Shown piece after piece: positions 39,321 through 40,295 of a stretch of 53,703 bases of DNA. This stretch comes from a virus. Taxonomy: Duplodnaviria; Heunggongvirae; Uroviricota; Caudoviricetes. Position 1 is the first letter of the stretch. The number at the start of each line of letters is the position of its first letter. The notes under the pieces are model-generated. The model was given only the letters and a program-made list of their open reading frames with translations. It was not told the DNA's origin and ran no database searches. The stretch covers positions 1 through 53,703 of IMG/VR virus record IMGVR_UViG_2526164595_000015; one strand, 5' to 3'. A program made the position numbers and the translations under genes.

Positions 39321-39716
39321 CTAACCTCGCATGTCAAAGCCAGATTTCTGAAAATCTCTGTAGACTTCCGGATTGTTGAAGGCCGGAAATTTGGCTTTAT
39401 GAGCTGCGGACTTTATCGCTTCGCAATAGGCTTTATCACCGTTACTGGTAGATATTTTTAACGCCGTGCCATCCTGAGAGAATTCCATATGCAACCTGCA
39501 TTTTTTCCCTTTCCAGTTATGCGGCTCATCAAGTTTGGCATTAATTGCAGCTCTGATTCCCCGCGCTTGCGCCCCCCATTCATCCTGATCATCCCAGCGT
39601 CCTGAACTGCAACTACCTGTAGCAGTAGTTTTGTGGCAATCTGAAGGGTGTAAAGGTGTGCATCCCGCAACAAAACCGACCCAAAAAGTCAACATAACGA
39701 TTTTCTTTAATCCCAC
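39321..39716 (-). CDS. lipoprotein with TolA C-terminal (domain III)-like domain
   Basis: 131 aa; GTG start with GAGGAG SD; lipobox VAGC; C-terminal ~80 aa align to TolA-III as recalled (…KCRLHMEFSQDG…YCEAI…FPAFNNPEVYRDF…), both Cys conserved. Confidence 0.7.
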   Translation of the reverse strand: MGLKKIVMLTFWVGFVAGCTPLHPSDCHKTTATGSCSSGRWDDQDEWGAQARGIRAAINAKLDEPHNWKGKKCRLHMEFSQDGTALKISTSNGDKAYCEAIKSAAHKAKFPAFNNPEVYRDFQKSGFDMRG

Positions 39717-39866
39717 TTCTTGCTCCTCAATCCATTAAAATCTCAGCAATAGTAGTTGTTACGTCCGCCACTGGCTCAGAGCTGACTATCCGCTAAATTT
39801 AGCTCAGTGCCGTAGTTGTGTCAGAACAAACCTAAGCCGAAACCGTTTATTACAAAACAATAAATA

Positions 39867-40295
39867 TCAGGGTTTAAAATCCAGCACCCCATTTTGAAAT
39901 ACTTTATATACTTCCGGCGAAGGGGGGGCAGGTATATCAGCATTCTTTATCGCATTCATCGCTTCACGACATAAATCGAGGTCTCCACTTTCTCTTTTAA
40001 CCTCCAGTAGAAGGCCATTCGGGGCCATATGCATTCTCAGTGTACACTCTTTTCCTGAATACTTACTCGCATCCCCGAACTGTTTTTCGATGGCGCTCTT
40101 GATTTGATGGGCATACAGACGGATATCCTCACTAACATCAGAAGTACGTTCAGATGAACTCACATACTGTGTCTCTATTGCTTTATCGGAGTAATATGAT
40201 GTACGGTCATGATAATTTGTCGATACAGCATCAGTGCACCCGATAATAATCCCACTAATAATCAACGTAAGAATTGATGCGCTACGAAAACCCAT
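39867..40295 (-). CDS. lipoprotein with TolA C-terminal (domain III)-like domain
   Basis: 142 aa; lipobox IIGC; C-terminus YAHQIKSAIEKQFGDASKYSGKECTLRMHMAPNGLLLEV…IPAPPSPEVYKVFQNGVLDFKP closely parallels recalled E. coli TolA-III. Confidence 0.75.
   Translation of the reverse strand: MGFRSASILTLIISGIIIGCTDAVSTNYHDRTSYYSDKAIETQYVSSSERTSDVSEDIRLYAHQIKSAIEKQFGDASKYSGKECTLRMHMAPNGLLLEVKRESGDLDLCREAMNAIKNADIPAPPSPEVYKVFQNGVLDFKP

Follow-up and report, generated by a model that had tools for sequence, protein, structure and literature searches.

Short lipoproteins with a TolA domain III in the late region of a lambda-like Escherichia coli prophage: possible decoys for Tol-dependent invaders

Protein and DNA import has classically been studied with Tol-dependent colicins and filamentous phages, and the usual explanations for resistance to them are loss of the receptor, mutation of tol genes, or a cognate immunity protein. 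In E. coli, the TolA protein that serves in these import routes consists of an inner-membrane anchor, through which it draws on the proton-motive force via TolQR, a domain II, and the C-terminal domain III (TolAIII; residues about 325-421; structures 1S62, 3QDP, 1TOL, and 2X9A), and it is encoded in the tol-pal operon. The present study concerns two adjacent genes, here called A and B, in a window of 53,703 nucleotides, i.e., the whole stretch of DNA that was analysed (positions 1 to 53,703 of the IMG/VR virus record IMGVR_UViG_2526164595_000015), which represents a lambda-like E. coli prophage. The products of both genes have the fold, the disulfide, and the C-terminal β3 strand of TolAIII, but they carry a signal peptide and a short tether in place of the TolA anchor and domain II, and genes of their types are located on prophage or plasmids or stand alone, instead of within a tol-pal operon. 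We tentatively read the two proteins as membrane-tethered decoys for ligands of TolAIII.

The docking surfaces of TolAIII have been mapped at the molecular level. The N-terminus of TolB, colicin N (ColN), and the N1 domain of the filamentous phage protein g3p (g3p-N1) all dock on β3 (L417-K420) via β-strand addition, and the TolA substitutions D418P or K420P abolish the binding of TolB, ColN, and g3p (PMC4339652). The affinity of TolA for TolB is weak, at 40-250 µM, as compared to about 1 µM for ColN and g3p (PMC4339652, PMC7066135), and loss of the strand addition between TolA and TolB leads to a full tol phenotype with leakage (PMC4339652). Colicin A uses the opposite edge of the domain, L375-P380, where K368, K379, and K396 engage in cation-π contacts (PMC3365938). 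A close counterpart is the superinfection exclusion exerted by pIII of the Ff phages, in which TolA is sequestered by full-length pIII or by periplasmic pIII-N1, the latter conferring tolerance to colicin A and a 4-log drop in phage uptake (PMC10424213). The interface is the same as that proposed here for A and B, and so is the expected phenotype, tolerance to Tol-dependent colicins and to filamentous phage. The two would be mirror images, however, in that Ff pIII blocks the receptor domain of the host, whereas A and B would be spare domains that bind the invader in place of the host TolA, which would remain available.

Small outer-membrane lipoproteins that guard their carrier at the envelope stage of entry are known from several mobile elements, including Cor of phi80, N15, and mEp167, Llp of T5, and TraT of F. 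These proteins inactivate an outer-membrane receptor such as FhuA or OmpA, whereas A and B copy a periplasmic hub domain of the host. With respect to their position, A and B are comparable to the late cargo of lambdoid phages (stx, bor, lom; morons), with which they share a low-GC insert between the Q/tRNA region and the lysis genes, a terminator of their own, and expected read-through by the Q-modified polymerase; the product differs from those of stx, bor, and lom, and no virulence role is known for A or B.

Two prophage lipoproteins with a TolA domain III

A sequence-only reading of the window had noticed two adjacent open reading frames (ORFs) with a lipobox (VAGC and IIGC) at 39321-40295, and had remarked on a C-terminal resemblance to TolA that included both cysteines. 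The two ORFs are present as described, and the peptides quoted for them agree with the translation. Gene A (40295..39867, minus strand), which is the first of the two in transcription order, encodes a lipoprotein of 142 residues, and gene B (39716..39321, minus strand) encodes a lipoprotein of 131 residues that is read from a GTG start and in which the TolA domain III is divergent; both assignments combine the ORF with a match to the TolA C-terminal family PF06519 of Pfam. This hidden Markov model (HMM), proposed at the time as a check of the resemblance, has a gathering cutoff of 25 bits, which is exceeded by A with 82.6 bits (E 2e-23) as well as by B with 54.6 bits (E 1e-14). In phmmer searches against the Protein Data Bank, E. 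coli TolAIII chains were found with E 5e-28 for A and E 5e-9 for B. Both proteins align without gaps to residues 334-421 of E. coli TolA, up to the very C-terminus, with 52 of 88 residues identical in A (59%) and 27 of 88 in B (31%). The cysteines that form the TolA disulfide, C363 and C388, are kept in both, as C84/C109 in A and C73/C98 in B, and the C-terminal β3 strand reads LDFKP in A, which is the same as in TolA, and FDMRG in B, which is a conservative replacement.

Structure prediction, the second check that had been proposed, led to the same result. AlphaFold models of A and B were built from family alignments, and Foldseek was used for structure matches. The domain III of A comprises residues 54-142 (39870..40136, minus strand) and was modelled with a predicted local distance difference test score (pLDDT) above 90, as compared to below 50 for residues 19-50; residues 21-53 constitute a disordered, Ser/Thr-rich tether in the model. 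The A model superposes on 2x9a_B, the TolAIII chain from the complex with If1 g3p, with a TM-score of 0.96 and a root-mean-square deviation (rmsd) of 0.6 Å, and the B model, in which the domain likewise has a pLDDT above 90, superposes on 3qdp with a TM-score of 0.90 and an rmsd of 1.1 Å. Besides, A has a weak match to TonB_2 of Pfam (23.6 bits). These results confirm that the TolA domain III in A and B is genuine and no chance resemblance; the outcome that had been named as refuting it, the absence of a significant TolA-III model hit or fold, did not occur.

The N-termini of both proteins display a charged n-region, a hydrophobic core, and a lipobox that fits the pattern [LVI][ASTVI][GAS]C. 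The A protein starts with MGFRSASILTLIISGIIIGC, followed by TDA, with IIGC as its lipobox; the signal peptide with lipobox covers residues 1-20 (40236..40295, minus strand), with the codon for Cys20 at 40238-40236 and Thr at +2. When read from the GTG at 39716, the B protein starts with MGLKKIVMLTFWVGFVAGC, followed by TPL, with VAGC as its lipobox; its signal peptide (residues 1-19, Cys19 codon at 39662-39660) and a subsequent Cys-containing segment (residues 20-45) together occupy 39582..39716 (minus strand). In E. coli, lipoproteins without Asp at +2 are sorted to the outer membrane by the Lol system. The lipobox Cys is invariant or nearly so across the family alignments, and because the +2 residue is Thr in A and B, and is Asp in none of at least 63 short family representatives, both proteins are predicted to be outer-membrane lipoproteins that face the periplasm from the inner leaflet side.

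The start of B differs from that in the automatic annotation. The Prokaryotic Genome Annotation Pipeline (PGAP) uses an internal ATG, which gives a protein of 124 residues beginning with MLTFWVGFVAGC, whereby the signal peptide loses its charged n-region (39695-39728). Since a Shine-Dalgarno sequence, GAGGAG (39728-39723), is found with a 6-nt spacer before the GTG (39717..39728, minus strand), the latter appears to be the better start. With regard to A, many database alleles are truncated or have foreign N-termini, such as a 91-residue form in Shigella sonnei, a pattern that points to frequent decay of A alleles, or to their disruption by insertion sequences, in some lineages.

The remainder of TolA is not present in either protein. 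The N-terminal transmembrane helix that couples to TolQ-TolR (domain I) is replaced by the lipoprotein signal peptides, and instead of the long helical domain II there are only 26-33 residues between the lipobox Cys and domain III. Since A and B lack the inner-membrane anchor and domain II of TolA, no coupling to the TolQR motor would be possible. Moreover, both genes are encoded outside a tolQRA-tolB-pal-cpoB cluster. The names assigned by PGAP, 'cell envelope integrity protein TolA' (tolA) for A and 'TolA C-terminal domain-containing protein' for B, can be traced to the models used: HMM alignments of A and B are confined to positions 265-362 of TIGR02794 and 293-386 of NF007065, and PGAP labels A as tolA because it exceeds the TIGR02794 cutoff (59.45) at 75.6 bits through domain III alone, whereas B fails this cutoff at 47.2 bits and neither protein passes the NF007065 cutoff of 213 (A 107.8 bits; B 53.7 bits). 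The name 'cell envelope integrity protein TolA' is misleading, and the annotated start of B cuts its signal peptide.

Family distribution and conserved surfaces

Only one of 50,697 deposited phage genomes, mEp460_ev081, contains the segment, as an identical stretch of 1.25 kb, and for that reason the deposited phage records gave no comparative context. The segment with A and B is common in the host species, being present at 99% identity or higher in 773 of 5426 complete E. coli genomes. A scan of IMG/VR with a narrower family alignment mostly returned the same E. coli prophage. By profile search of 1.84 billion representative proteins 579 relatives were detected, and among the top 149 of these, 97 are at most 170 residues long, and a lipoprotein signal peptide was recognised in at least 63 of these 97. 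Relatives with a named source are from Rahnella, Hafnia, Franconibacter, Erwinia, Enterobacter, Dryocola, and Salmonella and have all been automatically named 'TolA'; one divergent member has a VapE-type primase nearby, in phage-like surroundings. By these profile and signal-peptide criteria, A and B are members of an extensive family of short TolAIII lipoproteins in Enterobacterales.

The sequence-only reading had described the two genes as tandem copies, the IIGC-bearing one being the second. They are indeed adjacent, although the IIGC-bearing gene, A, is transcribed first; a tandem duplication was rejected, since A and B are only 29% identical, which excludes a recent duplication, and each of them is found elsewhere without the other. 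A-type variants with 91% and 66% identity are found in other lambdoid prophages as the only member of the pair, with Q genes of differing types on one side and the holin on the other, and in a related prophage one A-type variant occupies the stx slot of a Stx-phage layout and is followed by nanS-p and the holin. In the same Q-to-holin slot, a gene of the TfpB family and one for an AraC-family regulator precede the 66% variant, which illustrates that this cargo region is mosaic.

The B-type genes have spread further. They have 87% nucleotide and 87-88% protein identity to B, with an identical C-terminal half. On IncI1 plasmids the gene lies 68 bp downstream of the relaxase gene nikB, and on pO157-like (IncF) plasmids it lies beside toxB, with a nikB-3' remnant at the junction. 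As this nikB-3'/B-type junction is common to 596 plasmids (IncI1 and pO157-like), the copy on pO157 arrived along with an IncI-type fragment. In Enterobacter chromosomes a B-type gene stands alone between a glutathione peroxidase gene and ridA, and in Serratia chromosomes it adjoins a GmrSD_N (DUF262) and HEPN gene pair, a neighbourhood that is like a defence island. As these occurrences show, A and B move independently, and they are probably two separately acquired accessory genes.

Simple pairwise estimates of the ratio of nonsynonymous to synonymous substitution rates (dN/dS) amounted to 0.09-0.25 for the domain of A and about 0.5 for its tether, and to 0.06-0.08 for the domain of B and 0.02-0.10 for the 26 residues that follow its lipobox Cys. 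Judged from these estimates, A and B are real genes under purifying selection. The 26-residue segment of B (residues 20-45, 39582-39659), PLHPSxCHKTTATGSCSSGRWDDQDEWG, contains two extra cysteines and is nearly invariant across genera, and, judged from its low dN/dS, it is functional. A likeness of its WDDQDEW part to the TolB box of colicins, DG[ST]GWSSE...W (PMC2821528), was considered and set aside: the W-x5-W spacing and the acidic run are faintly alike, the D-G-S start is unmatched, and the likeness is a lead only.

The conservation within the domain is unevenly distributed over the two docking edges. The A protein keeps L417, D418, F419, K420, and P421 exactly, and of the lysines contacted by colicin A it keeps K379 and K396 and has His at the position of K368. 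When 54 diverse short TolAIII lipoproteins are compared with TolA, identity amounts to 52-81% at the β3-site residues and to 63-67% at K413 and N414, which precede this site, but only to 6-24% at K368 and positions 377-380 of the colicin A site. The TolA-specific C-terminal motif FKNxxLDFK is conserved in the family. Since the β3 site is kept and the colicin A site is not, the family appears to be conserved for whatever docks on β3.

Setting in the late region

On the minus strand, the order of genes and signals is RusA, DUF968, Q, pR', a tR'-like terminator, two tRNAs, low-GC DNA, A, B, a terminator, the holin, DUF1327, lysozyme, and Rz. The position that had been put forward for the two genes, as cargo between the Q/tRNA region and the holin, is thus the one observed, with Q, tRNAs, A, B, and a P21-type holin in that order. 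The Q antiterminator (42509..41688, minus strand) was recognised by Pfam Antiterm PF03589 (185 bits). Directly 3' of it, TTGATT-16-TGg-TAAATT (41682..41655, minus strand) was identified by eye as the late promoter pR', below the scan threshold of 9/12; we take this element to correspond to lambda pR'. A terminator scan detected a tR'-like terminator (41607..41588, minus strand), which the Q-modified RNA polymerase must pass.

The transcript then enters the cargo stretch, 39050-41300, in which the GC fraction is 0.37-0.47 as compared to about 0.50 in the flanks. Upstream of A, the sigma-70 scan gave a predicted promoter-like site, TTGAGC-18-TATAAT (40354..40325, minus strand), which had the best score (10/12). 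The gap between B and the holin contains a strong intrinsic terminator (39195..39178, within 39170..39195, minus strand) with a 7-bp stem, 5 GC pairs, and a T tract, the hairpin of which is present in both the minimum free energy and the centroid folds. As in morons, the genes are accompanied by a terminator of their own and a deviant base composition, and they occur in different genomic backgrounds. Their layout resembles that of an insulated insert within the late transcript that depends on Q. A terminator at this position is most readily understood if there is some Q-independent transcription from further upstream, and since Q-modified polymerase would pass it, A and B would also be made during lytic growth.

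Several further features were recorded in the surrounding DNA. The two tRNA genes (CAT; Arg-TCT) lie at 41544..41292 (minus strand) and were found at the same locus by ARAGORN and PGAP. The CAT tRNA (41469-41544) was called Met by ARAGORN and tRNA-Ile by PGAP for the same gene in E. coli 55989, and is probably a lysidine-modified Ile2 tRNA, as in the tRNA sets of Stx phages. Between the tRNAs and A there is about 0.9-1 kb of low-GC DNA (40400-41290), which includes a tiny DUF3927 gene in the PGAP annotation as well as a 114-residue ORF (40829..41173) of doubtful coding status, which lacks a Pfam match and has a terminator-like hairpin within it. Downstream of the terminator, the P21-type holin (39126..38854, minus strand; Pfam PF04971, 121 bits) is the first gene of a lysis cassette (37946-39126) that is P21-like, with a holin of the P21 S family, the DUF1327 gene, and then lysozyme. 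The N-terminus of the lysozyme is hydrophobic (MSAKIKYGLSAAVLALIAAGASAP), which is suggestive of a signal-anchor-release endolysin.

Possible decoys for TolAIII ligands and other explanations

The reading that we favour, at somewhat less than an even chance, is that A and B are decoys, tethered to the outer membrane and not energised, that bind ligands of the TolAIII β3 strand, i.e., group A colicins, g3p of Ff and If1 phages, and possibly TolB. The sequence-only reading had already suggested membrane-anchored decoys that could confer exclusion or colicin tolerance, or a modulation of Tol-Pal at lysis; of that reading the structural part holds. It builds on the domain identity, the fold, the lipobox, the gene order, the terminator, the purifying selection, and the distribution. 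A tethered, disulfide-stabilised copy of TolAIII would present a TolA-like β3 surface at the place where invaders first enter the periplasm; candidate ligands would be the translocation domain of a colicin leaving its porin, g3p-N1 brought in by a pilus as it retracts, and possibly TolB loaded with a colicin, via its N-terminus. A ligand bound to a non-energised domain at the outer membrane would not be pulled inward, and the lysogen, or the host of the plasmid, would thereby become tolerant. The A protein probably is a close mimic of E. coli TolA, and B with its divergent surface may broaden the coverage of the pair. In lysogens, the genes may be expressed from their own promoter with a stop at the terminator before the holin, and Q-antiterminated read-through would supply them in lytic growth. 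Since the parasites bind TolAIII about 40-fold tighter than TolB does, a modest level of decoy could protect the cell and leave Tol-Pal intact. Moreover, B-type genes occur on plasmids and chromosomes without lysis genes, which argues against a lysis-specific role and for one that protects the host or the element. Protection of the carrier is also favoured by the established mirror-image case, the sequestration of TolA by pIII-N1 (PMC10424213). For IncI1 plasmids there would even be a specific motive, as phage If1 infects via the I pili that these plasmids encode and its g3p binds TolAIII (2x9a).

A number of observations weigh against the decoy reading. With respect to expression in lysogens, promoter-like sites are not enriched in the region (10 found; 8.1 expected from shuffles), and the site before A is altered or lost in relatives: the 91% variant keeps the -35 element and has TGTAAT at -10, and the 66% variants lack the site and have unrelated DNA upstream. 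In B, the three lysines contacted by colicin A, K368, K379, and K396, are all lost and replaced by E, S, and H, respectively. The selection on both genes is purifying and not diversifying, so that the classic signature of an arms race is missing. The N-terminal segment of B seems to be under tighter constraint than is expected of a tether, which a simple decoy model does not explain, and the copies that are stably kept in Enterobacter chromosomes might serve the physiology of the envelope. No match for A or B was found among the defence models of PADLOC-DB, and full-text searches of the literature turned up no study of these short TolAIII lipoproteins. Finally, as far as residue conservation can tell, the preservation of β3 suits binding of host TolB, and thereby modulation of Tol-Pal, equally well.

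The latter possibility was developed as an alternative in which the proteins serve the phage, by binding the TolB N-terminus (or Pal or CpoB) and blocking the TolA-driven dissociation of TolB from Pal; the resulting local 'tol' state, with a weak outer membrane, vesiculation, and leakage, would aid lysis or the release of phage or toxin. The location of both genes in the Q-dependent late transcript, just upstream of the holin-endolysin-Rz cassette, is consistent with such a role, as are the β3 site for TolB being the best conserved surface and the full tol phenotype with leakage that follows loss of TolA-TolB strand addition (PMC4339652). We nevertheless consider it unlikely: a terminator parts A and B from the holin, the lysis set of the phage is already complete including Rz, the affinity to be exploited is in the weak range of 40-250 µM, and B-type copies reside on plasmids and chromosomes without lysis genes. 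In addition, a tol phenotype that is permanently expressed would burden the cell, which is hard to reconcile with genes that are conserved and as common as these (773 of 5426 genomes).

Slightly more doubtful still is another role in the envelope, such as colonisation, serum resistance, or conjugation in the manner of Bor or TraT, or the blocking of an outer-membrane receptor that bears a TonB or Tol box and serves other phages, in the manner of Cor or Llp. Lambdoid phages use the same slot for virulence cargo, B-type genes have toxB as their neighbour on pO157-like plasmids and follow the relaxase operon on IncI1 plasmids, the C-terminal folds of TolAIII and TonB are related (A has a weak TonB_2 match, at 23.6 bits), and the conserved N-terminal segment of B hints at an extra activity. 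Nothing specific speaks in favour of any of these roles, however, and the family also occurs in environmental Enterobacterales (Rahnella, Erwinia, Hafnia, Franconibacter), its conserved part is the TolA-specific FKNxxLDFK, and the pO157 copy came with an IncI-type nikB remnant and not with toxB. The reading implied by the automatic annotation, in which A and B are TolA proper, either extra or incomplete copies able to complement the TolA of the host, or inert tolA fragments, is hardly credible and in the stated form refuted, since against the PGAP call for A and its TIGR02794 score (75.6 versus 59.45) stand the presence of domain III only, the NF007065 scores below cutoff, and a location outside a tol-pal operon, and inert fragments are rejected in view of dN/dS values of 0.06-0.25, conserved lipoboxes, and a large family of short proteins built alike.

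In a wider form, the decoy reading can be extended to the family as a whole, in which short TolAIII outer-membrane lipoproteins would constitute a widespread and so far unrecognised class of mobile-element immunity in Enterobacterales, borne by phages, IncI1 and pO157-type plasmids, and chromosomal islands, as 'co-receptor decoys' against Tol-dependent bacteriocins and pilus-specific filamentous phages. The nikB-linked gene would then be a defence against the I-pilus phage If1, and the prophage would stack two specificities, A being close to TolA and B being divergent and equipped with an N-terminal module. This extension is speculative, and we regard it as less likely than not.

The resemblance to TolA itself is not new, because PGAP and RAST already call A 'TolA'. 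What appears to be undescribed, as far as full-text searches went, is the class of short TolAIII proteins with a lipoprotein anchor that phages, plasmids, and islands carry, together with any function of this class; the PHROG match, family 5772, is labelled 'unknown function'. A report of a 'TolA-type' gene in EDL933 that is induced by ciprofloxacin was followed as a lead and turned out to concern a tail-fibre gene, and a marine phage paper claims TolA as an auxiliary metabolic gene but offers no data for it.

The genes are common, with 773 of 5426 E. coli genomes carrying the segment, about 600 IncI1 and pO157-like plasmids carrying the B-type, and dozens of divergent relatives in Enterobacterales. 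If the decoy reading is true, a transferable copy of the TolA docking domain would add a further route to broad-spectrum tolerance, in which Tol-Pal, which is essential for fitness, stays intact. A role of these lipoproteins in tolerance to bacteriocins or phages would bear on competition in the gut, on how colicin-based antimicrobials and M13-based tools are designed, and on the biology of resistance and virulence plasmids.

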